DNA of 64,000 nt from Alphaproteobacteria bacterium (lineage in GTDB: Bacteria > Pseudomonadota > Alphaproteobacteria > Micropepsales > Micropepsaceae), in contig JAGWLZ010000017.1 of NCBI GenBank assembly GCA_028871895.1, positions 15,933 to 79,932 of the forward strand, given 5' to 3'. The position numbers and the translations under genes were made by a program. Below, in pieces: positions 1,665-30,519 of this stretch. The stretch's first letter is position 1. Each line of letters begins with the position of its first letter. The notes under the pieces were generated by a model. It had not been told where the DNA came from and ran no database searches. It saw only the letters and a list, made by a program, of their open reading frames with translations.

Positions 1665-1889
1665 TCAGCGTGCCCGCGAGGCCGACCACGCATCGAGGTC
1701 GTCGATGTGATAGAAGATGTTGCGGCCATGCCGGCGGTATCTGGGGCCGGTTCCGTGCTTGCGCATCCGTCCGAGTGTGTAGGGATTGAGATGTAGGTAG
1801 TGGGCTGCCTCTTTCGTACTCAAGAAAGGACTCCCCTTCTTTGCACGCATGACCCGAAGATTTGTTTCGTCGAGATTCTTGTCGCCCAT
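1665..1889 (-). CDS. rdfS: MerR/AlpA-type HTH recombination directionality factor (excisionase)
   Basis: 74 aa; FLSTKEAAHYL...TLGRMR..GTGPRYRRHGRNIFYHIDDLDAW HTH_17-like pattern; first gene of the rdfS-traF-slt-rlxS unit. Confidence 0.78.
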   Translation of the reverse strand: MGDKNLDETNLRVMRAKKGSPFLSTKEAAHYLHLNPYTLGRMRKHGTGPRYRRHGRNIFYHIDDLDAWSASRAR

Positions 1890-6735: not shown

Positions 6736-6999
6736 TTACCTGCGCCCTTTGCGTCTGCCGCCAGGGAGCGGCTTTACGGGGCTTCGCACAGCGGCCCTTT
6801 CGAAGAGTTCGGAAATCTCGACCGTCAAAGTGATCGCCAACTTCTCTAGAACGGCCACCGTGGGATTTTCGAGCTCGCGCTCGAGCCGGCTGACATAAGT
6901 CCGGTCAATTCCGGCGTCGACGGCCAACGCTTCCTGGGATAATCCGCGAGCCACGCGAAGCCGTCGGATGTTCCTTGCCACCAGAATCTGCGCCCTCAT
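6736..6999 (-). CDS. qseC: XRE/controller-protein-like HTH regulator QseC
   Basis: VARNIRRLRVARGLSQEALAVDAGIDRTYVSRLERELENPTV pattern; divergent from the qseM-like gene. Confidence 0.8.
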   Translation of the reverse strand: MRAQILVARNIRRLRVARGLSQEALAVDAGIDRTYVSRLERELENPTVAVLEKLAITLTVEISELFERAAVRSPVKPLPGGRRKGRR

Positions 7000-7092: not shown

Positions 7093-7383
7093 ATGGTGCC
7101 AAGGCCGAGACCGTGCAAGGACCCTGAAATCGCCAATTCCGCGCCCGATGTGTCGTGTCTCACCGATTACGATTATAGGCTGCTCGTCACGTATCTGCGT
7201 CTGCTTGACGCGGAAAGAGAAGGCGCGGACTGGCACGAGGTTGCGCGGATTGTCCTCAAGACTGATCCCGACCGCGACTATCGACGCGCTAAACGCTGCT
7301 ACGACTCGCATCTAGCACGGGCCCATTGGATGACGGAACACGGTTACCGCCATTTGCTGCGGGAAGCAGACGACGAATGGTAG
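7093..7383 (+). CDS. qseM: Antiactivator QseM (DUF2285-type)
   Basis: LTDYDYRLLVTYLRLLDAEREGADWHEVARIVLKTDPDRDYRRAKRCYDSHLARAHWMTEHGYRHLL resembles the remembered QseM pattern (LTxYD...YMRLLDA...G.DP..EP.RA...SHL.RA.WM...GY). Convergent with fseA. Confidence 0.8.
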   Translation: MVPRPRPCKDPEIANSAPDVSCLTDYDYRLLVTYLRLLDAEREGADWHEVARIVLKTDPDRDYRRAKRCYDSHLARAHWMTEHGYRHLLREADDEW

Positions 7384-7387
7384 CGTC

Positions 7388-8173
7388 TCAGCGGAGGAAC
7401 GCCCGATATCCATGATCCATCAGGGTGCGGCCTCGCGTGATGGCGTGGCGAACCTGATCGCGCAGGTTTTCTTTGGGGTCGCGCCAGTCACGTTCGACGC
7501 GTTCGTGTCCGTAAAGCACTGTCGCAATCTCGCGCTGCGTTGCACCGCCGAGCCAGCCGTCCAGGGCTCGTAGCACAAACGTTAGGCGGGCGGCAGGCGG
7601 ATCAGGTGGGAAATATCGCTCGGGCAATCCGTGGCCGGCCCGACAGGCATGAAAACAGGCAAGCATCTGCACCTGATACACAAAGAGTGGTTCCGGCATT
7701 CCCGTATCAAATGTGAGTGTCACCGGCGCAAGCAAATTCTCTCCGCGAACGCAGAGTTGAAGGGCGCGTACGCCGTCCCGAATGAGAACATGCTGTAGCC
7801 CGTCATCGGCAAGAAGCAGCGTGGTGGGTAATTGGGTGTCCGCTAGCACAAAGGGTTGCGTCTTTGTCTGCGCCGGCAGGGCCAGAAGACGCAGCACCTT
7901 GGGGCAAGCATCGGGATCCCAAAAGACCGTCGCAGCGCCAGCGTCCTCATCGGCAGAAACGGTGAACAGGCAGGCCTCGGTCGGCATTGTCGAACGAGCA
8001 CAAACCACCTGCAGCGGACCGCCGTCTGTGCGCTTTCGCCATTTGGCCGTCTCGCACGCCTCGCGAAACGAGTCTTTGCGGCGCAAATATTCCCAGGCAA
8101 AGGCCTGTCGCGGAAAGCGAAGAAAATCGTAACCTGTGCGCCAGTCGGGCGGCACTTCCGATGCAGCTGACAT
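7388..8173 (-). CDS. fseA: Transcriptional activator FseA (DUF6499 plus DUF2285 fused in one frame)
   Basis: N-terminal DW...YD....PRQAFAWEYLRR (DUF6499). C-terminal LRALDG...GATQREIA.VLYG.ERV..DW......LRDQVR.....GR.LM..GYR.FL (DUF2285). Downstream of traI. Confidence 0.82.
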   Translation of the reverse strand: MSAASEVPPDWRTGYDFLRFPRQAFAWEYLRRKDSFREACETAKWRKRTDGGPLQVVCARSTMPTEACLFTVSADEDAGAATVFWDPDACPKVLRLLALPAQTKTQPFVLADTQLPTTLLLADDGLQHVLIRDGVRALQLCVRGENLLAPVTLTFDTGMPEPLFVYQVQMLACFHACRAGHGLPERYFPPDPPAARLTFVLRALDGWLGGATQREIATVLYGHERVERDWRDPKENLRDQVRHAITRGRTLMDHGYRAFLR

Positions 8174-8232: not shown

Positions 8233-8862
8233 TCAGGCCGCGCGCACGACGGGCGCCCAAAGCACCGGGCCGTCAAGGCCGCCGAGTTTGCGCAGGCGCT
8301 TGAGCGCGGCAACCGAGACTTCGAGATAGCCAGCGACCGCCATTGTGGTACCGATCGCCCGCGGCGGTCCGAGCCTTGCAAGCGGCCAAGCTGCACGTCG
8401 CAGGATCCGTTCCATGCGCACATCGGTCACCGTCAGGATCCTGCTCAACGATTTTGCCAGCCCGAACTCGACCATGCCGGCGAACAGCTCGTAGGTCGGG
8501 GCGGCAAGCCCGCCTCCCGCGTTGGCCGCATCGCGGTGTATGTCGAGTGCAAACCGGCTGCTCTCCCAAACATCGGCCGCCCCGGGAACCGGACCATTTG
8601 GCAGAAGCGCCGGAAATGCGTCACGCAGCATGGTAGGTCCCAATGACGGGAGCAAGCGGACGCAACCCTGAATCTGGCCGTCGAATCCCCTTAGCAGCAA
8701 GTAAGCCGGCTGCAGCGCATCGAATTCGTCGGCTTCCATGTCGCCGGCAGTCTCAACTTCCCACCCCAGGCGTTCCTTGAAGACGCGGTAGCGCAGACGG
8801 TGCATTTCGGCGAGAAGGTCAACAAACTCGCCATAACAGTTAGGTGTAATCAGTTGAATCAC
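8233..8862 (-). CDS. traI: Acyl-homoserine lactone synthase (LuxI family)
   Basis: MHRLRYRVF..RLGWEV...E.DEFD, GCVRLLP, WESSRFA and LTVTD motifs. GTG start at 8862 with SD GGAGG. Confidence 0.93.
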   Translation of the reverse strand: MIQLITPNCYGEFVDLLAEMHRLRYRVFKERLGWEVETAGDMEADEFDALQPAYLLLRGFDGQIQGCVRLLPSLGPTMLRDAFPALLPNGPVPGAADVWESSRFALDIHRDAANAGGGLAAPTYELFAGMVEFGLAKSLSRILTVTDVRMERILRRAAWPLARLGPPRAIGTTMAVAGYLEVSVAALKRLRKLGGLDGPVLWAPVVRAA

Positions 8863-8917
8863 GATCGCCTCCGTAATGGTCGGCGCGATTGAAGCGGAAT
8901 GCAGAGCGGATCGGATA

Positions 8918-8933
8918 CTGTCCAGTTGGTCAG
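8918..8933. promoter_or_regulatory. Putative tra/lux box for traI-fseA
   Basis: CTGTCCAGTTGGTCAG (6/8 pairs), centred ~63 bp upstream of the traI start. Candidate -10 TTCAAT (minus strand, 8893-8888) at class-II spacing. Confidence 0.55.
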
Positions 8934-9676
8934 GGGGGCGAGGAACCAGACCCTCGCTCGTCCGCTTGGGCCTTGGCGAGAAGGACCGCCGCCTGGCAGA
9001 TGGTGCGTACGCCCAGTTTGTGACGCACATTATCGAGATGGAACTTTACCCCGCGCGAACTCAGTCCCAGTATCGCCGCGATATCAGGCTGCGACTTACC
9101 CTGGGCTGCATGATTGAGACACTCCACCTCCCGAACGGTGAGCTTGACGTCGCCAATCTGGACACAATGAAAGAGTTTCCATCGTGCATGCGCGTGAAGC
9201 GAAATCGCCATCAGCTGTAGGACACGCCGGTTGGTCTTGATCGTGTGCTGGAACGCAACTCTGCGATCGTCACTCGCGAAGGTCACTGCGGCTACCGGTT
9301 CGTTGTCGTATTGTATTGGAACCGTGAAGCCGGAACGAATGCCAAACTGCGCGGCCTCTTCGAAAAATTTTTCCTGGGCAGTCGACATGAGCAACGTGTC
9401 GGCGCCCATTCCCCATTCAAAGGGCTCGCTCTGGCGATGAGCCAGAACGATAACTGGATCGAGTTTCTCGTAATGGGCCTTAAGATAATAATCTGTCCAT
9501 GGCAGCGGGTAGTTCGAGATGAGCTCCGGGCCGGCTTTCCTGCGGCGTGGCATCGTCAAATAGGCGAAGCACGGCAGATCGAACGCGATCGCCGTTTCTG
9601 CCATGGCTTGGTGGAAGCCTTCGCGGTCGTAGCTTTCGTTCAGGCGATCCACGAATCTTTGAAAGACGCGTTGCAT
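8930..9676 (-). CDS. traR: LuxR-family AHL-responsive regulator
   Basis: Autoinducer-binding motifs SNYP..W...Y, DPV, FEW, G...GFTVP; C-terminal LT.RE.ECL...AQGKS..DIA.ILGLS..GVKFHLDNVR.KLG HTH. Confidence 0.92.
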   Translation of the reverse strand: MQRVFQRFVDRLNESYDREGFHQAMAETAIAFDLPCFAYLTMPRRRKAGPELISNYPLPWTDYYLKAHYEKLDPVIVLAHRQSEPFEWGMGADTLLMSTAQEKFFEEAAQFGIRSGFTVPIQYDNEPVAAVTFASDDRRVAFQHTIKTNRRVLQLMAISLHAHARWKLFHCVQIGDVKLTVREVECLNHAAQGKSQPDIAAILGLSSRGVKFHLDNVRHKLGVRTICQAAVLLAKAQADERGSGSSPP

Positions 9677-9794
9677 GCTCGATCCCGTAAGACGGGAAGA
9701 CCCGGTATGAACTAAAAAGACCGACTATATGCTGTGCCCTTCCAAGCCCTGCGAGCTCGTCGATTGACGGTATCGGTCGAATGGCACATTCCCT

Positions 9795-11456
9795 TTACCG
9801 TCCTTTGGTCTCCCGAATTGAGATCGAAGCAGACGCAGGCGCCGCTCCATCAAATTCTGGCATCGCTGCGATCACATCGGAGTCGACATAAGCCTCAAAC
9901 CGCCGGAAATTTTCGCGGAACATTCGAACAAGCTTCCGAGCTTGGGCGTCATAGGCGGCTTTGTCGGCCCATGTGTCACGAGGGTTCAGAATTTGACCTG
10001 CGACATGCGGCACGGCGAGCGGCACGTTGAACCTGAAATGGGGGTCAACGCGCATTTCCGTTTCGGCGAGAGCGCCGGACAGGGCCGCATTCAGCAAAGC
10101 GCGGGTGACGTTGATAGGCACGCGCAAACCCGTACCAAACGGTCCTCCCGTCCAGCCGGTGTTGACGAGCCAGCAATCGGCTTGGTGGCGGGCCATCAGC
10201 GCGCGCAGCAGATTGCCGTATTCGCACGGATGACGCGGCATGAAGGGTGCGCCGAAACAGGTCGAGAAGGTCGGCAGCGGGTCTTTGCCAAGGTTCTTCT
10301 CGGTGCCCGCCACCTTCGCTGTGAAGCCCGATAGAAAGTGATACATTGCCTGTGACGGCGTGAGGTGCGCGATCGGCGGTAACACTCCGAAAGCATCAGC
10401 CGTGAGCATGATCATATTCTTCGGGTGACCAGTACGTCCGGTAGAAGAGGCATGGCGGATAAAATCGATCGGATAAGCGGCGCGGGTATTTTCGGTATAG
10501 CGGGCATCGTCCAGGTCGAGCGCGCGTGTATCCTTGTCGAACACCACGTTCTCCAGAATGGTGCCAAAGCGTTCGGTCGTGGAGAAGATTTCGGGTTCGG
10601 CCTTGCGATTGAGTCTGATAACTTTGGCATAGCAGCCGCCTTCGATGTTGAAGACGCCGTTTGGGCCCCAGCCGTGCTCGTCATCGCCAACCAAGGTTCG
10701 CGAGGCGTCCGCCGACAGAGTCGTCTTGCCCGTACCCGAAAGACCGAAGAAGATTGCAGCGTCGTTCGATGCGCCGACGTTAGCCGAGCAATGCATCGAC
10801 ATCACCCCTTTGGTCGGTAGCAGATAATTCATGATGGTGAAGACCGATTTCTTAATCTCGCCTGCATAGGAAGTGCCACCGATCAGGACCATGCGACGAG
10901 TGAAGTTCACTGCGATTACCGTCGAGGACGCGCAGCCATGCCGTGTGGGGTCGGCCGTAAAACCCGGAAGGTCGATCACGGTGAAAGTCGGCGTGAATTC
11001 CGTTAGCGCGTCGGCATCCGGCCGGATCAGCAGATTGTGGATGAACAGCGACTGCCAGGCGTGTTCGGTGACCACCTGTAACCTAAGGCGGTAGGCGGGA
11101 TCGGCGCCGGCAAAAAGATTTTGCGCGAACAATTCGCGCCGTTCGGCGTAGTCCATCATGTCACGATGTAACAGATCGAATTTCTCGGGCACCATCGCCT
11201 TGTTATTGGCCCACCACACGTTATCGGCGGTGTGTGCATCCTTGACGATGAATTTGTCCGGCGCTGAACGGCCGGTGTGCTTACCTGTGGACACCACCAG
11301 CGGACCTGCCGCGGCCAGATGGCCCTCCTCGCGCCGCAGCGCCATCTCGTACAACGCCGTCGGCCGCAAATTCCAATAAACGCGCTTGAGATTGTGGAAA
11401 CCAGCCGCCTCCAGTCCGCATGCACTCGGACGCACGGAATCCTCGAATCCCATCAT
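9795..11456 (-). CDS. pckA: Phosphoenolpyruvate carboxykinase (ATP)
   Basis: [64 protein letters not shown]. Confidence 0.96.
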
Positions 11457-11552
11457 TACACGACGCCTCCATACCAGTTCATCGCAATCGCCCACCGCGA
11501 ACTCGTCTGCGGCGCTTGCGGTGCGACGCGCTCTCCGCGTGAGGGGAATTTC

Positions 11553-12812
11553 TCATGGGAACAATCCACGAAGTTTCTTACCGGCAGCGACGCGCTCCAC
11601 GCCAATGGCATGTGCCGCCAAGCGGTTGGAGATGCGTTCGGCATTGACCCGACGGATGACGATCTCAAAGGCCCGCTCCAGAAGCTGTGCAAGCTGGTTT
11701 CTCACTTGGTCTTCGGACCACATCAAACGCTGCAGGCCCTGCACCCATTCGAAATAGGAAACGATCACCCCTCCGGAATTGCAGAGGATATCCGGGATCA
11801 GGAATATATCTCCGCGATCTTCGATGACCTGATCGGCCTCCGGTGTGGTCGGCCCGTTCGCGCCCTCTGCCAGGATTCTGCAGTTCAACGCCCCGGCAAG
11901 ATCAACATCGATGGCCCTTTCGGTTGCCGCGGGAATGAGAATGTCGCAGCGCCTCCGGAGCAAGTCGGAGGGATCGCTGATCAGTTCGCGCGACCAGCCT
12001 TTTAGCGAACCGTTTCGCGCGGCATAAGCGACAAGGTCCCGCACAGGCAAGCCTTTCGCGCAATAGTATGCCGCGGAATGATCGCTCACGCCGATGACCC
12101 TGATCCCCATCTCTTCGTGCAATATGGATGCGACGACCGAGCCAACATTGCCGAAGCCTTGGACAATTGCCGTCTGACCCGCATGATCGTGACCGATGTA
12201 CTTCATAGTTAGGCCGATCAGATGGCACGCGCCCCTGCCCGTCGCTTCCTGTCGGCCGATACAGCCGCCGAGGCTTACGGGCTTGCCTGTCACGATTTCC
12301 GAAGTGGCATGTCCGCTGTACATGGAATAGGTGTCCATGAACCATGCCATCACCTGTTCGTTGGTGCCGACATCTGGTGCCATGACATCGGTATGGGGCC
12401 CGACGAATGGTATCAATTCCTGCATGTATCGACGCGATAAAACTTCGCGCTCTCTCGGCGACAGCGCGTAGGGGTCGCAGGCAACGCCGCCTTTTGCGCC
12501 GCCATAAGGCAGCCCCGCGAGCGCGCATTTCCAGCTCATCCAAATGGCCAGTGCTGCGACCTCGCCGATCTCGAGTTCCGGCGCGAATCGCGTCCCACCT
12601 TTGGTGGGGCCTAGCGTGAGATGGTGCTGAACGCGATAACCTTGGAACACCTCCGTTCGGCCGTCGTCCCTGTGAATGGGCACCGATACGGTGATGGCGC
12701 GCTTGGGGTACAACAGGCGCGCTCGATCGTCCGCCGGGATATCGAGGTGGTTTGCGACCAACTCGAACTGATCGCGTGCCATGTTGAATACAGGACCGTC
12801 ATAAATCGACAT
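11553..12812 (-). CDS. gdhA: Glu/Leu/Phe/Val-family dehydrogenase (glutamate dehydrogenase)
   Basis: GYRVQH...GPTKGG.RF, MSWKCAL..LPYGGAKGG, DVMAPDVGT, TGKP, QGFGNVG, EGANGPTT, GGVIVSYFEWVQ. Confidence 0.92.
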   Translation of the reverse strand: MSIYDGPVFNMARDQFELVANHLDIPADDRARLLYPKRAITVSVPIHRDDGRTEVFQGYRVQHHLTLGPTKGGTRFAPELEIGEVAALAIWMSWKCALAGLPYGGAKGGVACDPYALSPREREVLSRRYMQELIPFVGPHTDVMAPDVGTNEQVMAWFMDTYSMYSGHATSEIVTGKPVSLGGCIGRQEATGRGACHLIGLTMKYIGHDHAGQTAIVQGFGNVGSVVASILHEEMGIRVIGVSDHSAAYYCAKGLPVRDLVAYAARNGSLKGWSRELISDPSDLLRRRCDILIPAATERAIDVDLAGALNCRILAEGANGPTTPEADQVIEDRGDIFLIPDILCNSGGVIVSYFEWVQGLQRLMWSEDQVRNQLAQLLERAFEIVIRRVNAERISNRLAAHAIGVERVAAGKKLRGLFP

Positions 12813-12821
12813 GCGATACTC

Positions 12822-15800
12822 TCATTCCATGTTGAGTAACGCGGGATCGCCACCTTGCGCGGCGATATTGACGCTGAGCGCACGCTCGACCGCATAGCGG
12901 AACAGCGCATGCGGTCCGCCGGCCTTGGGACCTGTGCCGGACAGGCCTTCGCCGCCGAATGGCTGAACCCCGACCACCGCACCGATGATGGAGCGGTTGA
13001 CATATGTATTGCCTACCGGCACCAGGGCACGTACGCGGTCAACGAAGCTTTGTAGCCGCGTATGAATTCCGAGCGTCAGTGCATAACCCCTTGCGGCGAG
13101 CGCTCCACCGCATTGTTCCAATTCTTCGGCGCGATAACGGATGACATGAAGAATGGGTCCGAACACTTCGCGGTCCGGCAACCTATCCAAGGCGATCTCC
13201 GCCATCACGGGGCCGAACAGCAGTGGATGGCCGCCAGCCGGCCTCACCTGTTTGTGTATTGTTGCCGTGGCCCGCAGATGCGCCAGATGTTTCTCCAGCG
13301 CCTCCTTGGCCGCGGCATCGATCATCGGACCGATATCGGTGGCGAAGTCGTGGGGATCGCTCACTTGCAGCACATCCATTGCGCCCTTCAGGCCGTCGAT
13401 CAGAGTTTCGGCGGTTTCCTCAGGCAGGAATAGGATGCGAAGCGCCGAACAACGCTGTCCAGCGGAACCAAAAGCGGAGAGGATTACGTCATCCAAAACC
13501 TGCTCGTGCTGGGCGGAAGTGTCGACGAACATCGCGTTCAATCCGCCCGTCTCAGCAATGAAGGGAAGCAACGCGCCGTCTCGCATCGCCAGCGAGCGAT
13601 TGATTGCGCGCGCAGTGTCGGTGCCGCCGGTGAAGGCAATCCCGGCAAGGTATGGATGGTTGACGAGCGCTGGGCCCACGGTCTCGCCGGGGCCCGGCAC
13701 CAGATGCAGCACATCGTCAGGAAGGCCCACCTCCTTGAACAACTTCACCGCGGCGGCAGCGACGCGGGGCGTCTGTTCCGCCGGTTTCGCCAGCACGGTG
13801 TTGCCCGACGCCAACGCCGCCGCCACTTGGCCAGTGAAAATGGCGAGCGGAAAATTCCACGGGCTGATGCAGGCGAACACACCGCGGCCGTGCAGCTCCA
13901 GCACGTTGGTCTCGCCGACGGGACCTTTAAGCGTTTCGGGACGGCCAAAGTGGCGCTCGGCCAATAGCGCGTAATAGCGACAAAAGTCGGCGGCCTCGCG
14001 CACCTCGCCGACCGCGTCGGGCCAGGTCTTACCCGCCTCCTTGACCATTAAGATCATCAATTCGTTGCGACGGTATTCCAGCGCGTCCGCCATGGCAGAT
14101 AGAATTCTAGCGCGTTCGGCGCCGCCTCTGGCGTCCCAGCCCGGCTGGGCCGCGCGCGCGGCAGTAAAGGCAGCATCGATCTTCGCCTGCGTCGCGTCCG
14201 GGGCAGATTCTCCGGTGTCGTACAGCCGCGCCAGCACGGTGCGCTCTGCCGTACTCGAAAGGTCCACACCCAAGCTGTTCAACCGATCGCCATAAATGTC
14301 GCGAGGCAGGGGAATGCGCGGATGCGGGCCCGGGCGCAGGTTCAGCATTTTCACCGGGTCCACGGCTACTTTTTCAACCGGCGTGTCATCGTCGAGCAGT
14401 TGATGAACGAAACCGGTGTTAGCGCCGTTCTCCAACAGTCTCCGCACCAGATAAGGTAGTAGGTCTTCATGCACCCCCACTGGAGCGTAAGTCCGTAGCG
14501 ACAGCCGCCCGAATTCGCGCTGCGCGGCCTCATACAGCGCTTCACCCATTCCATGCAGGCGTTGATGTTCGATCATGACGCCGCGCGCTTTCGCCATGGC
14601 GCGCACAGCAGCCAAAGTGTGCGCGTTGTGTGTGGCGAACTGGCCGTAAAGATGCGGAGAGGCATCGACCAATATCCGGGCGCACACCAGATAGGACATG
14701 TCGGTCGCCGGCTTGGTGGTAAAAACGGGATAACCGGGCCTCCCGGCCATCTGCGCGCGCTTGATCTCGCTGTCCCAATAGGCTCCTTTGACCAGTCGCA
14801 CCATCAACCTGCGTTCGGTTTCGCGCGCCAGGGCGGCGAGCGCCGCAACGACCTTGGGGGCGCGCTTTTGGTAGGCCTGGACCGCCACGCCCAAGCCGCG
14901 CCATTTTCCCAGCGCCGGTTCGCGCGCGAGCTTGTCCAGCAGTTTGAGCGACAACACCAAACGGTCTGCTTCCTCGGCATCCAAAGTGAAATTGATGTCG
15001 GCCTGGGCAGCCAAGTCCGCTAATCGTCTCACGCGCGGATAGAGTTCGCGCCAAATCCGCGTTTCTTGGCTGGGTTCGTAACGCGGTGACAATGCCGACA
15101 GCTTCACCGAAATGCCGTGCGCGGCTTCTGGGCCCCTGGTATCCTTGCTGATGGTCGCAATCGCGTGCGTGTAAGCCGCTTCGTATCGCTGCGCATCGGC
15201 CTCGGTGCGCGCGCCCTCGCCCAGCATATCAAAGCTGCACACGAGCTTCTCTTTCGTGGCGCGATCGAACGCCATTTCGATGGTACGCCCCAGAACGAAT
15301 TGCTCGCCCATGATGCGAACAGCCTGGGTGACGGCGGCACGCACAACGGGTTCGCCGACGCGCGCCGCAAGTATACGGATGGTGCCAACCGCATCGTCCA
15401 TACCACTGACGTCGATCAGCCGCCCCGTCAGCATGAGGCCCCAGGTCGAGGCGTTGACCAACAAACTATCGGATTGTCCTAGATGGACCGCCCAATCGGC
15501 GGTGCAGATCTTCTCGGCGATGAGCCGGTCTTTGCTCGCGGTATCTGGCGTGCGCAGCAGCGCTTCGGCCAAGCCCATCAGCGCCAAACCTTCGTTTGTA
15601 GACAAAGAGAATTGCCGCAAGAAACATTCAACCACGCCTTTTTGCCGACTTCCGTGCCGTGCGCCCGCAATAAGTCTCTTTGCTACGGACAAAACTGCGT
15701 CGCGGCTCTCGATAGGCGGCGTAACCTTCAAAAGCGCGGCAATGGCCTGGGCCTCGTCCTGATATTTGAACCGATCCAACAAGTCCCAGCTTGTGATATT

Positions 15801-15839
15801 GGATTGTTCTTCATATTCACCGCTTTTTGGCTCTTGCAT
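12822..15839 (-). CDS. putA: Bifunctional proline dehydrogenase / L-glutamate gamma-semialdehyde dehydrogenase
   Basis: SFDMLGE, ISVKLSAL.PRY, DAEEADRL, RLVKGAYWDSEIK, QRLHGMG, LVRRLLENGAN; ALDH half has ISPWNFP, AETGG, AGQRCSA, QPFGG.GLSGTGPKAGG. Confidence 0.96.
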   Translation of the reverse strand: MQEPKSGEYEEQSNITSWDLLDRFKYQDEAQAIAALLKVTPPIESRDAVLSVAKRLIAGARHGSRQKGVVECFLRQFSLSTNEGLALMGLAEALLRTPDTASKDRLIAEKICTADWAVHLGQSDSLLVNASTWGLMLTGRLIDVSGMDDAVGTIRILAARVGEPVVRAAVTQAVRIMGEQFVLGRTIEMAFDRATKEKLVCSFDMLGEGARTEADAQRYEAAYTHAIATISKDTRGPEAAHGISVKLSALSPRYEPSQETRIWRELYPRVRRLADLAAQADINFTLDAEEADRLVLSLKLLDKLAREPALGKWRGLGVAVQAYQKRAPKVVAALAALARETERRLMVRLVKGAYWDSEIKRAQMAGRPGYPVFTTKPATDMSYLVCARILVDASPHLYGQFATHNAHTLAAVRAMAKARGVMIEHQRLHGMGEALYEAAQREFGRLSLRTYAPVGVHEDLLPYLVRRLLENGANTGFVHQLLDDDTPVEKVAVDPVKMLNLRPGPHPRIPLPRDIYGDRLNSLGVDLSSTAERTVLARLYDTGESAPDATQAKIDAAFTAARAAQPGWDARGGAERARILSAMADALEYRRNELMILMVKEAGKTWPDAVGEVREAADFCRYYALLAERHFGRPETLKGPVGETNVLELHGRGVFACISPWNFPLAIFTGQVAAALASGNTVLAKPAEQTPRVAAAAVKLFKEVGLPDDVLHLVPGPGETVGPALVNHPYLAGIAFTGGTDTARAINRSLAMRDGALLPFIAETGGLNAMFVDTSAQHEQVLDDVILSAFGSAGQRCSALRILFLPEETAETLIDGLKGAMDVLQVSDPHDFATDIGPMIDAAAKEALEKHLAHLRATATIHKQVRPAGGHPLLFGPVMAEIALDRLPDREVFGPILHVIRYRAEELEQCGGALAARGYALTLGIHTRLQSFVDRVRALVPVGNTYVNRSIIGAVVGVQPFGGEGLSGTGPKAGGPHALFRYAVERALSVNIAAQGGDPALLNME

Positions 15840-15949
15840 ATTCTTTTAGTAACTCTTAGTGGCATTCAGAACTGGAATACTGCACGGTTTCTGGCAGAAT
15901 GTGCTGCCAAATATCGACGATTATTGCGATCGAAACAGGAGATTCCTCG

Positions 15950-16471
15950 GTGACAAGGGCAAGAACCCTTCGCGACCTAGACCATGTGGATCGCAATATC
16001 CTTTCGATCCTTCAAGGCGACGGGCGGATAGCGAACGCGGAGCTCGCCAAGCGCATCAATCTCAGCCCGACACCGACGCTCGAACGCGTGCGCCGGCTGG
16101 AGAGGGATGGCTTCATAGAAAGTTATGTTGCAGTGCTCAATTCGTACAAAATGGAGGCCGCCATGACGGCCTTCGTCGAGGTCAATCTCGACCGAACGAC
16201 CGAGGACGTTCTAAAGAGATTCGCACAAGCGGCGCTGGCGACGCCAGAAATAATCGAGTGCAACATGATCGCGGGCGGCTTCGACTATCTCTTGAAAATC
16301 CGCGTGGAAGACATGGTGGCCTATCGAAAATTTATGGGCGCCAGACTGGCGGAACTGCCGGGGATCCGCGCGACGCATACCTTCATGGTGATGGAAAAGA
16401 TCAAGGACGAGACGGCGTTTCCGGTTGGGCTTCCCGTCCAAAAGGAAGCCCGTCCGCATACACACAAATAG
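15950..16471 (+). CDS. putR: Lrp/AsnC regulator, divergent from putA
   Basis: LDHVDRNILSILQGDGRIANAELAKRINLSPTPTLERVRRLE..GFI..Y and I.EC.MIAGGFDYLLKIRV.DM..YR motifs. GTG 15950 has SD AGGAG. Confidence 0.88.
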   Translation: MTRARTLRDLDHVDRNILSILQGDGRIANAELAKRINLSPTPTLERVRRLERDGFIESYVAVLNSYKMEAAMTAFVEVNLDRTTEDVLKRFAQAALATPEIIECNMIAGGFDYLLKIRVEDMVAYRKFMGARLAELPGIRATHTFMVMEKIKDETAFPVGLPVQKEARPHTHK

Positions 16472-16533: not shown

Positions 16534-17883
16534 TCATTTACGGTCCAGCCCTATGGCGTGCAGGTGCCGCTTGACTCGTCTCAAAGCAAACCAGACGAGC
16601 GCGACGACAGGTATGGTGATGGACCCCGTCGCGACTTCCGGGGAAATTTGTGGCAGCACAACGCTGAGACCTTCCGAAATGCCCTTTAGCAAGCCAATGG
16701 CATAATAGCTGATCGCGACCACCGACAGTCCTTCGACCGTGTGCTGAAGGCGCAATTGGAGCGCCACGCGATGATTCATTGAGCGGAGCTGATCCCTGTT
16801 TTGTTTTTCGACGGCGGTGTCTACGCGGGTCCGAAGTAGGGCGCTCGTCCAGGACACGCGTTGCGATAGTTCATCCAGGCGGTTCGAAAAGGAATCGCAG
16901 GTACGTGCGGCCGGCATGAGTCGGCGTTCGGTGAAGTCGGTCAAGCATTGATAACCGGGAACGACACGCACATCGAGGCTTCGCAGCCGGTCGTTGCTGA
17001 GTTGGGCGTAGGCTCTGGTTGCACTCATGCGATACCGTGTGGAAGCTATAAGCTGCGCCAGTTCCGCGCTTAGGAACGAGACCTCTCGGAGCAACTCGTC
17101 GTCTTGTTGCTGTTGTTCGGCGATTGACGCCGTCAATTGAGAAAGCCTTTGATCGAGTTGCGCGACCTGGGGCATCAGACGCTGGGCCTCCGGCAGGCCC
17201 AAAAGCGCCATGTTGCGGTAGTGGCCCTGTTCGAGCAACCTCTGGATCAGGTTAGAAGGTTCGAATCCTCGCATCCCGCGATCAGCGACGATGAGCCGGC
17301 CGAAACCGTCTCCATGGACGTCGAAGTCGGACCAGAGCCTGGCCTTTCCTCCCGCAAGATCGCACACGACGATATCTGGCCGCGAGAAAATGCGTGCAAG
17401 CTCGCCTGTCGTCGGATCCGGTTCGCCCACGGGCAGATAGAGTATTTGCGTTGCCTGGATAGTTCGTCCCGGCAGTGACGCAAACCAGTCAACGGGGAAA
17501 GCCTCTTCCAATTCGTTCAGATTCAACGGCTGCTTGCGACCGCTGGCGACGACGATGAAAGTGCAGAACTCGCTATGGGCTTCGAAGATCAAGTCGAAAG
17601 CCCCGACGCGTTGCACGAAATATTTACCGATCTTCGTAGTGGGCGGTGATGCGACATCGCCGAGTCGTTGGATATGCTCCATACCCAGCTGCGCGATGTG
17701 CGCCTCACCTTGCATGACAAATTGGACGAGACGGGTCGGGCTCTCGAAGTGCGGGATTCTGCGGACATGCATCTCCTCAGAGATGAAGCTGCGCAATGGA
17801 TGATTGGTTGGCGGCACGACGGAACCGGGAATGAACAGGGTTCTTTCCACGGGTGAGCCAGTATTGATTGGACGACGCTTCAC
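16534..17883 (-). CDS. DUF3422 family membrane-anchored protein
   Basis: HPLR..I.EEMHVR, E.HSEF.TF, RLWSDF..H.DGFGRL, QRLLE...YRNMALLGLP.A, LQLRLQ.TVEGLSVVAISYY motifs. Confidence 0.75.
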   Translation of the reverse strand: MKRRPINTGSPVERTLFIPGSVVPPTNHPLRSFISEEMHVRRIPHFESPTRLVQFVMQGEAHIAQLGMEHIQRLGDVASPPTTKIGKYFVQRVGAFDLIFEAHSEFCTFIVVASGRKQPLNLNELEEAFPVDWFASLPGRTIQATQILYLPVGEPDPTTGELARIFSRPDIVVCDLAGGKARLWSDFDVHGDGFGRLIVADRGMRGFEPSNLIQRLLEQGHYRNMALLGLPEAQRLMPQVAQLDQRLSQLTASIAEQQQQDDELLREVSFLSAELAQLIASTRYRMSATRAYAQLSNDRLRSLDVRVVPGYQCLTDFTERRLMPAARTCDSFSNRLDELSQRVSWTSALLRTRVDTAVEKQNRDQLRSMNHRVALQLRLQHTVEGLSVVAISYYAIGLLKGISEGLSVVLPQISPEVATGSITIPVVALVWFALRRVKRHLHAIGLDRK

Positions 17884-17983
17884 TGCAAGTTCTCAACCCA
17901 AGATGCCCAGCGGCCCAATGTTACCGATGTATAATCCGATGAGGTGATTGGTCCCACGGTATGGCAAGGTGGACTTGGCATGA

Positions 17984-19162
17984 CTAGACGTGAGCTTCTG
18001 GCTTTAGCAGTTTGAGCGACCAAAACCCGAGAAACTCTCCAGACGGTGCGAGTTCAAGCGTTCCATTCAATTTTTGGGAGATATTGCATTGCTCAAGATA
18101 CGCAATAATTTGATGCCAGTCATCGGACCCCGGTTCGATCACGTAAACGGAACCATCAGGACGGAGCCGGCAGGGAACTATGCCCACTTCATGTACTCCA
18201 TCCTTTGTCGCACTAACCAAAGCCATCGTCGTCATTCGTGTATCGGGATGCATTGGGAGATATGGCCAACCTTCTCGGGGAGCTACAGCGTACGGAGCTT
18301 TCCAAATATCACCCGAAGACATCTCCGTGAGGAACCTTTCGAGCTCTTCCGCTGACATTCCAAGTTTGAAGTCAAATACAAAATGGCCAAGCCCGTAGAG
18401 AATTGGACACCCTTTATACCACTCCATGCCGCGCAAAGTATGATGGTGATGACCAACGACCATGTCGGCGCCGACATCAATGCAATATCGCGCGGTTCGC
18501 AACTCATGGTCAGATAGATGGTGGGGGCGGCTTTGGTCACCAGCATGAACACTGACGACTACCAAATCCGCCAGCTCCTTTGCACCACGAATATCCCTAG
18601 CCAAGTTCATCATGTCAGATTCGTCAGGAACGGTCGCCGAAATAGGCTGAGCGCCAGGCATGTGTAGGCGTGATATTGGCGTGCGCCACACGTCGTATGC
18701 GCGAATTGGCACCAATCCGGGGATGTTGGCGTAAGCTTCGTACCCCCAGGGGAAAATGCTAGAATAGCCAAGATAAGCTACTGTAAGCCCCTCTGCGCGC
18801 ACCAACGCTGGGGTTCGAGCATCGGAAATATTCTCACCGGCGCCACAAGTTTGTATCCCCTGCTTCCGAAGCCTAGATCTATTTTCAAGCATGGCATCGG
18901 AGCCCACATCAAGTATATGGTTGTTAGCGAGTGAAAGGACGTCAAATCCAACTTTCGAGAACACGTCGAGGTTTGCACCCGCGCCACTAATCATCGCCGA
19001 CATTCCGGAAGCAGGATAAGGAGTGTCCGTATAGGCACCTTCCATGTTACCAAAAAGAATGTCAGGCGCTTTCAAAAGCGCCTGTACGTCGCGAAACGGT
19101 GCTAGAGCGTCTTCACGATTCACAAGCAAGTCGCCTACGAATCCGAGGTTGATGGTCTTCAT
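17984..19162 (-). CDS. CapA/PGA_cap-family metallophosphoesterase-fold protein
   Basis: GDLL, FGNMEG, FDVLSLANNHILD.G, VVSVHAG, VVGHHHH, ILYGLGHFVF. Confidence 0.85.
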   Translation of the reverse strand: MKTINLGFVGDLLVNREDALAPFRDVQALLKAPDILFGNMEGAYTDTPYPASGMSAMISGAGANLDVFSKVGFDVLSLANNHILDVGSDAMLENRSRLRKQGIQTCGAGENISDARTPALVRAEGLTVAYLGYSSIFPWGYEAYANIPGLVPIRAYDVWRTPISRLHMPGAQPISATVPDESDMMNLARDIRGAKELADLVVVSVHAGDQSRPHHLSDHELRTARYCIDVGADMVVGHHHHTLRGMEWYKGCPILYGLGHFVFDFKLGMSAEELERFLTEMSSGDIWKAPYAVAPREGWPYLPMHPDTRMTTMALVSATKDGVHEVGIVPCRLRPDGSVYVIEPGSDDWHQIIAYLEQCNISQKLNGTLELAPSGEFLGFWSLKLLKPEAHV

Positions 19163-19251
19163 GAGTGACTCACTCTTTTTCTGCCAGAACCTGCGCTGGT
19201 CCGTGTTGGTGCCCATTTATGGGAACTCAGAAGCACCTTTATCTACTCACG

Positions 19252-20244
19252 TTAGGAGCTTTGAGCGTCATCATATCTGTTGTGGCCGAGAGACGAGCCA
19301 TGCGCCGCACCGCCGCCATCGAGTATGAGCGCCGCTGCAGCCCAATCCTCAATTGCGGTCCCGACCGACTTGAAGACGATTATCTCATCGTCCGATTTCC
19401 GGCCCTGCACTCGACCACGAATTAACTCAGCCAACTCGCCTTCAATCTGAGATCTACAGATGATGCCCCTATTGAGGGGGCCAATTATGTCACCAGCTTC
19501 TTCTAGCGCTCCAGCGTATGTGTCCACAAAAATGCGCGCTCTGGAAATCAGAACATCGTCGGCTTCACGCTTGGCTGGCGAGAAGCTTCCTATGAGGTCG
19601 ACAAATGTTCCAGGCCTTACCCAGTCGCCATCCAGTACCGGAACCGCGCTATTTGTAGCACAGGACACAATGTCAGCTTGACCTACGGCGGCCGCAATAT
19701 CCATTCGCTGTTCTATTTCAACGTGAGGCACCAGGGCGTGAATGCCGGCGGCGGCGATTTGGACCAGATCGGAACTGCGTCCACATATGCACACGTTGCG
19801 AATTTGACGTACCAAGCAGTGGGCAGCTACGTGTGTTGGGACGATAGGGCCGTCCCCGATAATGACGAGACGTGCACTGTCCATTCGTGACAAATATCTC
19901 GACGCTAATGCGGACGCGGCGGCGGTCCTGAGATGAGTCAAACTAGTTCCATCCATGATGGCAACTGGGGTTCCATATTCGGAAAGCACAAGGACAACCG
20001 CTTGAATATTAGGTAACTTCCTTTCTCTATTGTTTGGTAGAACGGTGAAGAGTTTCACCACACTCAATCCGTTACGCTTGAACGCTGGCATTGCGACTAG
20101 GAGACCATCGTCGCCCTCTGTCGAAAAGTTGAAAGCGTGTCGGTTGGGAACATCGAGCTCCTCGACAAATGCCCGCTCAAGCGCCGTAATCAACGCGCCA
20201 AGAGGAGCACGGGTTTGAATCTGTGCTGCGCTATAATACTCCAT
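19252..20244 (-). CDS. Ornithine cyclodeaminase / mu-crystallin family (imine reductase, DauB/LhpI-like)
   Basis: MPAF, VKLFTV.PNN, DGT.LT.LRTAAASALA..YL, ADIVSCAT, G.F.P..RE.D, FKSVG.AIED. Confidence 0.88.
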   Translation of the reverse strand: MEYYSAAQIQTRAPLGALITALERAFVEELDVPNRHAFNFSTEGDDGLLVAMPAFKRNGLSVVKLFTVLPNNRERKLPNIQAVVLVLSEYGTPVAIMDGTSLTHLRTAAASALASRYLSRMDSARLVIIGDGPIVPTHVAAHCLVRQIRNVCICGRSSDLVQIAAAGIHALVPHVEIEQRMDIAAAVGQADIVSCATNSAVPVLDGDWVRPGTFVDLIGSFSPAKREADDVLISRARIFVDTYAGALEEAGDIIGPLNRGIICRSQIEGELAELIRGRVQGRKSDDEIIVFKSVGTAIEDWAAAALILDGGGAAHGSSLGHNRYDDAQSS

Positions 20245-21538
20245 CCCCGTTTCTCCTAGGATATTTGGCGCGAGTCGTCTTTTGACCAAATCGAGCAAGT
20301 GAATAGGCGGATGCGTCAACGGTAGGTGCCTTTTCATCAAGTAAGTCAGCTAAGAGTTCCGCAGAGCCGGCTGCTGTTGTCCAACCTAAGTGACCGTGAC
20401 CGCAGTTGACATAAAGATTCGCTATTGGTGTCGCGCTCACAATTGGTACGCCGTCGGTCGACATGGGCCTTAAACCACACCATGGTCGAATTCGTGCTGT
20501 GCTCATCGGTAGAATGGGGAGAATTTGGCTTAATTGAGTAGCGAGGTTGCTTAAGCGAGCTTTGCGCAAAGATAGATCAAAACCAGCGAATTCCGCCGTG
20601 CCAGCAACGCGCAAGTCACTACCAAGTGGTACGACCACCACATGAAGCGAGTCGTCAACTAGTGGCGCTCGCAAGGCACAGTGTGATAAGCCGTCAAATA
20701 CGGTCAGCGAGTAACCTTTGACAGGTGTCACCGGGAGATTTAGTCCTGAGAGCTGCAACAAGGGGCTAATGTAGCTTCCTGCTGCAATTACGTACCGGTC
20801 TGCCCGCAGCCTCTGGTCAACCAGATCGAGACACACTAACTGACCGTGTTCTACTCTTAGCGGACCAACTGTCTGGTTGAACAGAAACGCTGCGCCCTCG
20901 GCCTTCGCACGTTCTGCCAAGGCAACGCAAAACTGATAGGCGTCCCCAGTCTCATCTTCGGGATACAGAATTGCGCCCGCGATACCTTTAGATATTGGGG
21001 CCAGCGCAGGTTCGAAAGCCAATAACTCAGGCAGAGTTAGACGCCGTGACTGAATGCCTTCATCTGCTAGGGCTGCAGCGACCTCCAGAGCTTCTTCATG
21101 TGCCTTGTGATTGCGGAACAACTTCAAGGTCCCACGCTCACTTCGGCAATACGAAATACCTGTGACAGCTCGCCATTGCCCCAGGATGTTCAAAGAATAT
21201 TGGGCAAGTCGGAGGTTCTTAACCCGGTTGCGTTTAAAAGCGACTGGGTTAGCGCTTTTTAGAAATGACGGACCCCAGCGAGTCAAAGAGGGCAATGCTT
21301 TCAAGCGGAGCTGAAGAGGAGAATCTTCACGACAGAGCGAACCCAGCAACACCTTCCAGCAACCTGGGGCGTTCCAGGGATCTGCCATGCTCGGTGTCAG
21401 TAAGGCACCATTGGCGTAAGTAGTTTCCAAACCCGGCGCACTGCGGCGCTCTATCACAATGACGTCATGTCCCCGTTTTGCTAAGGCATAAGCAGACGAT
21501 ACACCTATGATACCAGCTCCAATGATTACGACTTTCAT
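20231..21538 (-). CDS. FAD-dependent D-amino acid dehydrogenase (DadA/DauA family)
   Basis: VVIIGAGIIGVSSAY.LA..G.DV.VIER, ET.YANG, PVKGYSLT, RVAGTAEFAG, WCGLRPMS.DG.P, GHGHLGWT.AAGS. Confidence 0.9.
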   Translation of the reverse strand: MKVVIIGAGIIGVSSAYALAKRGHDVIVIERRSAPGLETTYANGALLTPSMADPWNAPGCWKVLLGSLCREDSPLQLRLKALPSLTRWGPSFLKSANPVAFKRNRVKNLRLAQYSLNILGQWRAVTGISYCRSERGTLKLFRNHKAHEEALEVAAALADEGIQSRRLTLPELLAFEPALAPISKGIAGAILYPEDETGDAYQFCVALAERAKAEGAAFLFNQTVGPLRVEHGQLVCLDLVDQRLRADRYVIAAGSYISPLLQLSGLNLPVTPVKGYSLTVFDGLSHCALRAPLVDDSLHVVVVPLGSDLRVAGTAEFAGFDLSLRKARLSNLATQLSQILPILPMSTARIRPWCGLRPMSTDGVPIVSATPIANLYVNCGHGHLGWTTAAGSAELLADLLDEKAPTVDASAYSLARFGQKTTRAKYPRRNGDGVL

Positions 21539-22560
21539 GAGTGCCAAACCGTTTGAGCGACACGAAGCCAGTTTTTGCCCAAGACGCCGCGTACAGATTC
21601 GTCATCTAATCCGGATTGCGATAGCTGATCGGCGATTTCAGTCAACGCTTCAGGCGGTATCATCTTAAGCTCAGTCAGCCCTAGATCGGTCGGAAAGTGT
21701 TGAGGGTTTTCACGTATGGCAGCTTCTAGCTCAGCGGTGTCGAAGACATAGTCCAAGCCCATTCCTACATGTTTCGGCCCAACCACATCGATGGCATATC
21801 GAACATGGTCGACAAAGCGTCTAACGAGATTGACGGATGTACCCAGAAATAGATTTATGCCGGTGATTCCGACCACGCCGCCCGTCGCCGCACATTGCTT
21901 CATCAGTGCGTCGGATACATTTCTTGGATGCGTATGCATCGCCGCAGGATTGGAATGCGACAGTATTACTGGATTGCGGGAATAATCGATCGCCTCTGAA
22001 GCAGTTCGGCTCCCAGTGTGACTAACACAAAGCACCATGCCGGCGCGCTCCATGGCATCTATGAGTCGCCGTCCACAAGGTGTCAGCCCTCCATCGTCAT
22101 CCAGGCATCCGCCGCCAGCGGCGTTACTATAATTGTAAGCAACCAGCATCCATCGTACACCTAGCGAATATAGAACTTCGACGAGGGCGGGGTCTTGCTG
22201 AACAGGGTACATACCCTCAACATCAAATGTGATCCCAAGCTTTCCATCATTGAAACAGGATATTATGTCAGGAACTCGTTCTATCAGACGATAGGTCTGC
22301 GGATTTTTGCTGATCCAATCGCGCATGTGGTTGATAGTGGCAAGATCATCTTGCAGAGTCTTTTCCGCATAGCCAACGTTGATCGAAACGACCCGAAATC
22401 CCGCCCTCCTGTAGCGCTCCAACTGCGGAAGATAGTTATCTTTGGGTAGTAGCGGCAGACATCCATGATTATCCCAGACCAATGATGTACGCACGAGTTC
22501 CGCCCCGCGACAGTGTAGAGGATGTTGCCGGGTTATGATGTTTACGTCCCTAACCATCAC
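21535..22560 (-). CDS. Membrane/renal dipeptidase family (M19)
   Basis: WDNHG, DVEG, GVRWM...YN, GLT..GR.LI..M...GM...SH, SHSN, HPRN, GGVVG, G.GLDY. Confidence 0.85.
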   Translation of the reverse strand: MMVRDVNIITRQHPLHCRGAELVRTSLVWDNHGCLPLLPKDNYLPQLERYRRAGFRVVSINVGYAEKTLQDDLATINHMRDWISKNPQTYRLIERVPDIISCFNDGKLGITFDVEGMYPVQQDPALVEVLYSLGVRWMLVAYNYSNAAGGGCLDDDGGLTPCGRRLIDAMERAGMVLCVSHTGSRTASEAIDYSRNPVILSHSNPAAMHTHPRNVSDALMKQCAATGGVVGITGINLFLGTSVNLVRRFVDHVRYAIDVVGPKHVGMGLDYVFDTAELEAAIRENPQHFPTDLGLTELKMIPPEALTEIADQLSQSGLDDESVRGVLGKNWLRVAQTVWHS

Positions 22561-24445: not shown

Positions 24446-24452
24446 AGCAGAT

Positions 24453-27229: not shown

Positions 27230-27288
27230 CGCAAATCTGGTGACGCCCAAGAGGGCGCCACCACCTTTGTGCAGAACGGCGCACACGC

Positions 27289-29511: not shown

Positions 29512-29548
29512 ACGCCCCCTCCTTGTATCTGGTCACCGTGACACTTTA

Positions 29549-29565
29549 TTGGAGATTATATCCAA
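29549..29565. promoter_or_regulatory. Candidate GntR operator upstream of TonB receptor 1
   Basis: TTGGAGATTATATCCAA; 7/8 palindromic pairs. Confidence 0.6.
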
Positions 29566-29775
29566 AATCAAATGTTCTTTTGGGCTGTCCGTGCTTAATC
29601 CCGCATGAGCGGAAAATCGTCGAAATTCGTTCGCTACCAAATCGACCGCAGGGCAACAGCCCACAGGCTCTTGAGGCACGAATTCGTCGCTAACCAGCAA
29701 TGTACTAAGAGGCACGCAGGAATGTGGGAACAGGAATGCAGGGCTAGGGATACTCCCTCCTGCTCAATCGCCAGA

Positions 29776-30519
29776 TCAGGCTGCCTGATTACCGCGTTGT
29801 TGAACCGGTTCGCGCTCTAAAATCTCCAACAAGTCTACACGAGCACGATCAATGTGATCGTGGGTCAACGCAACTGCCTGCCTAACAGCGCGCTTGCGGC
29901 ATAGATCCAAGAGCCCGCCATGATCCTCCTTTGCGCGTTCTACGCCAGTCCCCAAAGTGAGCACCAACCTAGTGTACCGATCAGTGTTGACTAGCAAACC
30001 GCGCACGATCTCAAGCGTTTTGCTTCGTTCCGACGCAGCATAAAGTGCTATGTGGAACCGCGTATTGTGCTCACCCCAGCTTAGAACATCTGAATTATCT
30101 AAGCCGACATTATAAGAGGTGAGGATTTTTTCAGCCGAGGTCAGATGCTCAGGAGTCATTTTGGGAATAGCTATTTCCAATAATTGCGGCTCCAACAAAG
30201 AGCGGAGTTCAAATAGCTCCAAGATCTCACTCCTCGAAAGAGCCGTGACTACATAGCCGCGATGAGGATAACTCGCTGCCAAACCTTCACTTTCGAGGCG
30301 AAATAGCGCTTCACGAATGGGAATGCGGCTAACACCAAATTGCTCAGCTAGCGCGTCCTGCCGAAGTGCCGTTCCGTCAGCCAGCTCGCCCGAAATAATC
30401 ATTCTTCGCAGCTGCTCGGTGGTCGCGTCAGCCACTGTTGTCCGCGGCAGTTTGCGCGAAGGCCGCGAGCCGACACGCAACCGTTCAGTCCCTGCTCGGA
30501 TTTGGGAAGAGTCTCGCAT
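29776..30519 (-). CDS. GntR-family regulator (FCD domain)
   Basis: LRRMIISGEL..G..LRQDALAEQFGVSRIPIREAL.RLESEGL....P.RG..V; FCD motifs FH.ALY and EDH..LL. Confidence 0.92.
   Translation of the reverse strand: MRDSSQIRAGTERLRVGSRPSRKLPRTTVADATTEQLRRMIISGELADGTALRQDALAEQFGVSRIPIREALFRLESEGLAASYPHRGYVVTALSRSEILELFELRSLLEPQLLEIAIPKMTPEHLTSAEKILTSYNVGLDNSDVLSWGEHNTRFHIALYAASERSKTLEIVRGLLVNTDRYTRLVLTLGTGVERAKEDHGGLLDLCRKRAVRQAVALTHDHIDRARVDLLEILEREPVQQRGNQAA

Follow-up and report, generated by a model that had tools for sequence, protein, structure and literature searches.

A probable cargo/backbone junction between a proline catabolic module and traR in an ICEMlSym-type element of a Micropepsaceae bacterium

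The 64,000-nucleotide stretch analyzed here (referred to as the window), from an alphaproteobacterium of the Micropepsaceae that is probably Rhizomicrobium-like, to judge from the sources of its PckA hits, carries a proline catabolic module, putA-gdhA-pckA, that points on the minus strand toward the quorum-sensing genes traR-traI-fseA of an integrative conjugative element (ICE). A sequence-only reading of this region had proposed that traR is a distal gene of the put operon and that proline would thereby control conjugation, as opines do on Agrobacterium Ti plasmids. We somewhat favor a plainer reading, in which the locus is a junction between cargo and backbone that is habitual for this clade of gdhA and that has lost its insulating terminator in one lineage, rather than an evolved opine-like gate. 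The genes named in the earlier reading (putA, gdhA, pckA, traR, and a divergent Lrp-type putR) and their coordinates were confirmed by an open reading frame (ORF) map and by Pfam and NCBIfam matches. By the same evidence, putR on the plus strand is divergent from putA-gdhA-pckA on the minus strand, and traR-traI-fseA follow on the minus strand, accompanied by qseM and qseC (Table 1). The gaps between the genes amount to 9 nt (putA-gdhA), 99 nt (gdhA-pckA), and 118 nt (pckA-traR).

The closest homologs of the window GdhA, at 77–80% identity, are encoded on other conjugative elements, where they neighbor transfer regulators. In the locus most similar to the window, L077, a divergent putR and putA-gdhA are followed, after 140 nt, by traR-traI, a LysR gene, and trb genes; identity to the window proteins is 81% for PutR, 79% for PutA, 79% for GdhA, 52% for TraR, and 59% for TraI. 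Other cargo lies upstream in L078/L079, L081–L083, and L084/L085, where gdhA is followed by a conserved ORF of 86–95 amino acids, an fseA homolog, and backbone genes. This layout is absent from L080 and from the P0251 contig. In L166, putA-gdhA is followed after 261 nt by pckA, the product of which is 59% identical to the window PckA over the 131 residues before the contig ends. Taken over all informative contexts, gdhA of the 77–80% clade is directly upstream of, and co-directional with, traR or the approximately 90-residue ORF and fseA in five of seven. As a control, we used a background set from a metagenome scan with GdhA, which yielded only a clade of 64–69% identity; none of these 80 loci has a TraR, TraI, or FseA homolog within 6 kb, and putA is adjacent in five of them. 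A search of a plasmid collection with GdhA gave nothing over 66% identity. In the contexts covered, this gdhA lineage is thus linked to conjugative elements and is habitually found where cargo meets a transfer regulator.

Directly after gdhA, four of these loci (L077, L080, L081, and L166) share a conserved block of approximately 110 nt with three hairpins, the last of which has a GC-rich stem of 9–14 bp followed by U5–8 and is a canonical intrinsic terminator (z −2.6 to −5.5). The local alignment between the L077 and L080 blocks has a score of 98, which was reached by 0 of 500 shuffles, and L078 contains a degraded version of the block. Because this terminator stands between gdhA and traR in L077, the recurring adjacency does not amount to an operon fusion; insulation is the normal condition at the gdhA junction, and this weighs against a nutrient gate. 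In the window, neither the gdhA-pckA nor the pckA-traR spacer aligns to the L077, L080, or L081 blocks above shuffle level, suggesting a lineage-specific loss of the block. As to the block itself, its first two stems stay paired despite sequence changes between loci, and it may be more than a terminator. The idea that a T5 run before traR is the remnant of a gdhA terminator split by insertion of pckA was rejected, the local alignments being at shuffle level. Also rejected was the idea that the two spacers were carried along with pckA from a chromosomal locus: compared with the sequences on either side of pckA in 11 relatives, they show no homology.

The two spacers were then considered by themselves. 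A consensus scan found neither terminator-like nor sigma-70-like sites in them, and a relaxed RNAfold scan gave no terminator; it picked up one weak, imperfect hairpin, the 3′ arm of which consumes the lone T5 run, and hairpin and run lie at 9709-9759, before traR. Neither spacer folds more strongly than its shuffles (z scores in Table 1). The earlier statement that pckA and traR are separated by no terminator and no convincing promoter is therefore upheld computationally by the consensus scan, the relaxed scan, and the shuffle test. When the relaxed criteria were calibrated in this genome, terminator-like hairpins were present in 27 of 34 convergent gene gaps and in 14 of 42 co-directional gaps of 90–150 nt. 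Intrinsic terminators are thus the norm in this organism, which makes a missing one before traR moderately informative; approximately one-fifth of the convergent gaps have no recognizable terminator. Among co-directional junctions of cargo and traR in relatives, seven of nine likewise lack a recognizable terminator, so the feature is not distinctive, which counts against a gate. Neither the consensus nor the relaxed scan identified a traR promoter in the 118-nt spacer, where alphaproteobacterial promoters, being weakly conserved, could still be accommodated. No conserved promoter or regulatory motif emerged when the 220 nt upstream of traR were aligned in six relatives (50–61% TraR identity). 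A Ti-type tra box was found nowhere in the window at up to three mismatches, the traR-traI and traI-fseA spacers contain no short palindrome, and an Rfam scan of the window gave no matches.

With no block, with pckA between gdhA and traR, and with no detectable terminator in either spacer, read-through is plausible, and transcripts from the putatively PutR-controlled putA promoter, or from any pckA promoter, could plausibly run into traR. On balance, we expect some read-through from pckA into traR; its complete or near-complete absence seems unlikely to us. Most likely, traR is still served by its own weak promoter, located within the 118-nt spacer or close to it, and read-through would add to this promoter while remaining subject to acyl-homoserine lactone (AHL) and to QseM antiactivation. 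It is doubtful that such transcription would make AHL production and excision depend materially on proline or on gluconeogenic growth.

A working nutrient gate would mean that PutR and proline drive transcription from the putA promoter across gdhA and pckA as far as traR, perhaps also traI-fseA, that TraR then exceeds the hold of QseM, and that proline, or peptides yielding it, become a condition for AHL production, excision, and transfer. The co-directional genes with their short gaps and undetectable terminators speak for this possibility, all the more so given that terminators are otherwise common in the genome and that four relatives have one following gdhA. Further points in its favor are a conserved candidate PutR operator in the putR-putA spacer, the lack of a recognizable traR promoter, the Ti-plasmid precedent (PMC3907764), and the recurrence of the put-gdh/traR adjacency in a second element, whose TraR belongs to a different clade. 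However, in that second element, L077, which is the only other one with put, gdh, and traR, a strong terminator separates gdhA from traR, and the exact arrangement of the window is known from one strain only. A gap of 118 nt is, moreover, long for an operon junction and leaves room for a promoter, terminators are equally unrecognizable at most co-directional cargo-traR junctions of relatives, and QseM/QseC control would still restrain TraR. We consider a working gate possible and rather unlikely. The proposal that traR is a distal gene of the put operon thus stands as far as the architecture, the ICE-cargo status, and the undetectable terminator are concerned, and it is weakened by the insulation in L077 and by the uniqueness of the full gene order.

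That uniqueness became apparent from searches anchored on TraR. In 201 genomes of the family, 22 TraR loci were found; traR-traI-fseA is present in these, with no pckA, gdhA, or putA nearby. A species-level genome collection contributed a further 18 loci, from Amorphus, Reyranella, Afipia, Bradyrhizobium, Sphingobium, and Stellaceae among others, and in no case does any of the three genes lie within 10 kb. The closest relatives of the window TraR are just 66–67% identical, and nothing above 67% was found in the collections searched. Upstream of traR, the three nearest relatives (63–67% identity) carry an MFS (major facilitator superfamily) sugar porter, a β-lactamase-family gene, or nirD-nasA-cobA, and TonB receptor genes, ATP-binding cassette (ABC) transporter genes, and others occur in this position elsewhere; approximately half of these neighbors are co-directional with traR. 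The put-gdh-pck-traR arrangement occurs in 0 of approximately 45 other TraR loci and is thus not conserved among related elements; the only loci that show the complete order are copies with 100% identity to this element, from GCA_028869925.1 and a Sequence Read Archive (SRA) assembly. The adjacency looked for in related ICEs does recur once, as put-gdh-traR in L077, with a terminator intervening there, and the full order including pckA is unique. In a decayed ICE (L074:760-5431), a nirD-nasA-cobA nitrate-assimilation unit ends 138 nt before a co-directional traR with no recognizable terminator, and this could be another cargo operon able to read into traR.

The variety of upstream genes bears on the opposite extreme, full independence, in which catabolic transcription ends before traR, either through Rho acting in the untranslated 118 nt or at an unrecognized terminator, and traR is expressed solely from its own promoter, the adjacency having no regulatory consequence. 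Since unrelated genes, about half of them on the opposite strand, precede traR in approximately 45 relatives, traR generally needs its own promoter. The same genome holds a second traR (contig C12, L037:11161-14558), 55% identical to that of the window, which starts 116 nt after a co-directional TonB-dependent receptor gene; a terminator of −19 kcal/mol lies in this gap, so the C12 traR is autonomous within approximately 70 nt. The genome probably hosts two related ICEs. The T5 run with its weak, imperfect hairpin at the pckA-traR junction could be counted on the side of independence as well. Yet no canonical terminator was found in the spacers of the window, termination without a recognizable hairpin is a minority situation (about one in five convergent gaps of this genome), and no traR promoter was found either. 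We regard full independence as improbable.

Several observations sit uneasily with the reading of the locus as an ordinary junction that lost its insulator. A maximum-likelihood tree built from 73 TraR sequences groups the window TraR with P0002 and P0003 as its sisters, both of them with cargo of another kind upstream, and assigns the L077 TraR to a different, well-supported clade. The two put-gdh-linked TraRs are thus not sister lineages, and the put-gdh/traR juxtaposition was not simply inherited with traR; the data fit an exchange of quorum-sensing modules or cargo at the junction as well as more than one origin of the juxtaposition, and a repeated origin could hint at selection. L084/L085 represent the sole other case without the block, with gdhA only 28 nt from a small ORF (orf87) that precedes fseA; L084:9001-11359 (and also L085) would be a stronger candidate than the window for fusion of a catabolic gene to a transfer activator. 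The absence of a match to a traR promoter is equally compatible with reliance on upstream transcription and with a weak promoter that departs from the consensus. Read-through, for its part, could range from strong and of functional importance to fully blocked by Rho. Finally, the 79.9-kb contig of which the window forms bases 15933-79932 contains no tRNA gene, integrase, or att site, and integrases are located on other contigs; with the ends of the ICE not on this contig, we only infer that the put region belongs to the element. Placing an ICE boundary in the 118-nt spacer is an alternative on this contig without tRNA gene or integrase; the duplicate genes, foreign gdhA, insertion sequence (IS), and low GC content described below point to cargo instead.

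A wider idea is that in a subset of ICEMlSym-type elements, an amino-acid catabolic unit with a dedicated, ICE-borne gdhA at its end habitually precedes the transfer activators (traR or fseA) in the same orientation, and that the presence or absence of the block sets the leakage into the transfer switch; excision and conjugation of the window element and of L084/L085, which lack the block, would then be coupled to proline or glutamate catabolism by an opine-like gate that arose on an ICE in a free-living bacterium. We give little credence to this idea at present. If read-through were real and consequential, the element would be the first ICE with a quorum-sensing transfer switch fed by a catabolic operon, a logic familiar until now from Agrobacterium plasmids under opine control, and the spread of a catabolic island would be tied to the availability of the substrate it degrades. 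Without read-through, this is an ordinary cargo junction. Even then, the loci constitute a natural experiment, with the same gdhA module placed beside transfer regulators with or without a strong terminator.

The cargo status of put-gdh-pck is indicated by several features. The genome has a second pckA (contig C18), 67% identical to the window copy, and a second putA (contig C74), approximately 52% identical to it. Among 200 genomes of the family (E ≤ 1e-80), gdhA has, its own copy excepted, one homolog, which is 44% identical, and no close gdhA homolog was detected at E ≤ 1e-215 in 400 genomes sampled across the class. The single pckA of relatives never adjoins gdhA or putA, and identity does not single out the housekeeping pckA, both copies being 70–76% identical to the pckA of relatives. 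The region flanking the module to the right is a gene cluster of low GC content (0.51–0.54), followed by an IS element. Given the second copies of putA and pckA, a gdhA foreign to the family, and the flanking IS and low GC content, the module is, by these genomic criteria, accessory and horizontally acquired cargo. Its chemistry appears coherent, leading from proline via glutamate and 2-oxoglutarate to the tricarboxylic acid cycle and phosphoenolpyruvate.

The low-GC cluster (16534-30519) encodes a GntR regulator, an unassigned 529-residue protein, PGA_cap and DUF3422 proteins, and a TonB receptor, an MFS transporter, an X-Pro dipeptidyl peptidase, an M19 dipeptidase, a DAO-type oxidase, and an OCD-family enzyme. 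It looks like a set for uptake and breakdown of proline-containing peptides that would feed putA, and the last six of these proteins would yield proline, as the nutrient gate supposes. In L081, too, gdhA is preceded by a PGA_cap and TonB receptor set. The IS at 30817-31896, encoding a DDE transposase with DUF772, divides this peptide locus from sugar and ester hydrolase cargo (a trehalase, a GH3 protein, a tannase/feruloyl esterase, and more TonB receptors).

On the other side of the junction, traR is followed by a single-ORF fseA, qseM, qseC, ardC, a ParB-like gene, a DUF736 gene, and rdfS, traF, slt, and rlxS. The latter genes were identified by an S26 peptidase (traF), an SLT domain (slt), and a DUF3363 relaxase (rlxS), and TraG, TrbB, and TrbE are encoded farther along the contig. 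With TraR/TraI, FseA/QseM/QseC, rdfS-traF-slt-rlxS, and Trb/TraG all present, the backbone is, by gene content, that of an ICEMlSym-type element. FseA is a single ORF of 261 residues that combines both of its domains with no frameshift split, in contrast to msi172/msi171 of R7A. The FseA homolog of L078 is split (73 + 180 residues), and that of L079 is called as a single ORF of 264 residues. The small ORF between gdhA and fseA in the related elements (L078:10389-10649, L081:10383-10670, L084:10283-10546) has the common motifs LAMLRMVGYSPK and VAWLRTIPG, no Pfam match, and no homolog in the window.

Table 1. Features of the junction and of the terminator blocks in related loci. Positions refer to the window unless preceded by a locus name.
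Feature	Coordinates	Strand	Basis or remark
putR, Lrp/AsnC-type regulator	15950..16471 (longest ORF 15899-16471)	+	Pfam HTH_24/HTH_AsnC + AsnC_trans_reg
Palindrome CTGGCAG-N5-CTGCCA, candidate PutR operator	15891..15909		conserved in the orthologous L077 and L166 spacers
putA, bifunctional proline dehydrogenase/pyrroline-5-carboxylate (P5C) dehydrogenase	12822..15839	-	NCBIfam NF008869, 1352 bits versus equivalog cut-off 747
gdhA, 419-residue glutamate dehydrogenase of the clade linked to conjugative elements	11553..12812	-	Pfam ELFV_dehydrog
gdhA-pckA spacer, 99 nt	11454..11552	-	without the terminator block of relatives; z +1.18
pckA, ATP-dependent phosphoenolpyruvate carboxykinase	9795..11453 (longest ORF to 11495)	-	NCBIfam NF006822, 905 bits versus cut-off 806
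pckA-traR spacer, 118 nt, cargo/backbone junction	9677..9794	-	no terminator, no sigma-70 match; z +0.27
traR, LuxR-type AHL receptor/activator	8930..9676	-	Pfam Autoind_bind + GerE (PF03472 + PF00196)
traI, AHL synthase	8233..8862 (longest ORF 8233-9030)	-	Pfam Autoind_synth (PF00765)
fseA-like activator (DUF2285/RovC_DNA-bd), single ORF	7388..8173	-	Pfam PF10074 + PF20109
qseM-like DUF2285 antiactivator	7093..7383	+	Pfam PF10074
qseC-like regulator	6736..6999	-	Pfam HTH_3
rdfS	1665-1889		HTH_17
Terminator block	L077:10261-10360		three-hairpin block after gdhA
Terminator block	L080:10261-10365		three-hairpin block after gdhA
Terminator block	L081:10261-10355		three-hairpin block after gdhA
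Terminator block	L166:5686-5790		three-hairpin block after gdhA

Some gene calls deserve comment. The best NCBIfam match of the window TraR is the TraR model, at 98.5 bits against a cut-off of 250, and the putR product matches the Lrp model below its cut-off (185 versus 233 bits). For traI, the GTG at 8862, 67 nt past the traR stop codon, is the likely start; the public gene call gives a protein of 209 residues from a start with a GGAGG ribosome-binding site. The C-terminal tail of the window PckA (9795-9850) is divergent and approximately 15 residues longer than the conserved ...AAPxLAEAAE end of relatives, and the 3′ end of pckA may have been remodeled at the cargo/backbone junction.

The putR-putA spacer contains the palindrome listed in Table 1, which is plausible as a PutR operator. 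The putR ATG at 15899 falls inside this conserved palindrome, and the GTG at 15950 has an AGGAG ribosome-binding site and gives a protein of 173 residues. Considering this overlap, together with conservation of the ribosome-binding site region with L077, the GTG is the likelier of the two and probably the true start of putR. In Caulobacter, PutR-dependent, proline-induced expression of putA is established (PMC6168545), and by homology, putA of this element would be induced by proline via PutR. The control of putA by a PutR-type regulator, as the sequence-only reading had it, is thus plausible, the palindrome being shared with two orthologous loci.

Systems with which the window can be compared share different parts of its organization. 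The PutR/PutA systems of Caulobacter, Agrobacterium, and Rhodobacter have, like the window, a divergent Lrp-type putR beside putA and a palindromic site in the shared spacer; they differ in that the putA of the window has gdhA and pckA behind it, in a module carried as a second copy by a mobile element, and in that the proline response of the window module is putative. ICEMlSymR7A, with TraR/TraI1, FseA produced from msi172-msi171, QseM, QseC, and rdfS-traF-msi107-rlxS, shares its regulators and backbone genes with the window; their relative order also agrees, and in both cases traR borders the cargo region. The R7A switch is sensitive to the dosage of traR (PMC8789080). In contrast to R7A, the window has FseA in one ORF, a contiguous traR-traI-fseA set, catabolic instead of symbiotic cargo, and a host that is not a rhizobium; in addition, the window TraR scores well under the NCBIfam cut-off, and no Ti-type tra box accompanies it.

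Transfer competence of ICEclc is linked to growth on 3-chlorobenzoate and to stationary phase. This ICE of Pseudomonas knackmussii B13 thus has its transfer competence tied to a substrate catabolized by its own cargo, and the earlier denial of any known nutrient coupling in ICEs was therefore too broad. The mechanism is unrelated to that envisaged for the window, in that it involves MfsR/TciR/BisDC, RpoS, and stationary phase, with no LuxR/LuxI pair and no read-through from a catabolic operon. The regulation of ICEclc has been described (PMC4063739). Nutrient control of a TraR system without fusion of traR to an operon is exemplified by pAoF64/95, a mannopine-inducible opine-catabolic plasmid; its traR is monocistronic, and the effect of the opine is exerted through inhibition of the antiactivator TraM (PMC6341043).

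The Ti plasmids, on which traR is a distal gene of opine-inducible operons (PMC3907764), provide the closest parallel to what had been proposed for the window. There are clear differences: the element in the window is an ICE with QseM/QseC/FseA, whereas Ti is a repABC plasmid with TraM; the inducer in the window would be a common amino acid instead of a niche-specific opine; co-transcription of traR with the catabolic genes of the window is putative; and the arrangement is not conserved, the closest comparable element (L077) having a terminator before traR. The likeness lies in the layout of the occ operon with OccR (octopine type) and the arc operon with AccR (nopaline type), where, as in the window, a substrate-inducible catabolic unit with a dedicated regulator at its head precedes, in the same orientation, the gene for the LuxR-type conjugation regulator TraR. 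Were there read-through in the window, this likeness would extend to transfer control, with both a nutrient and a quorum being needed.

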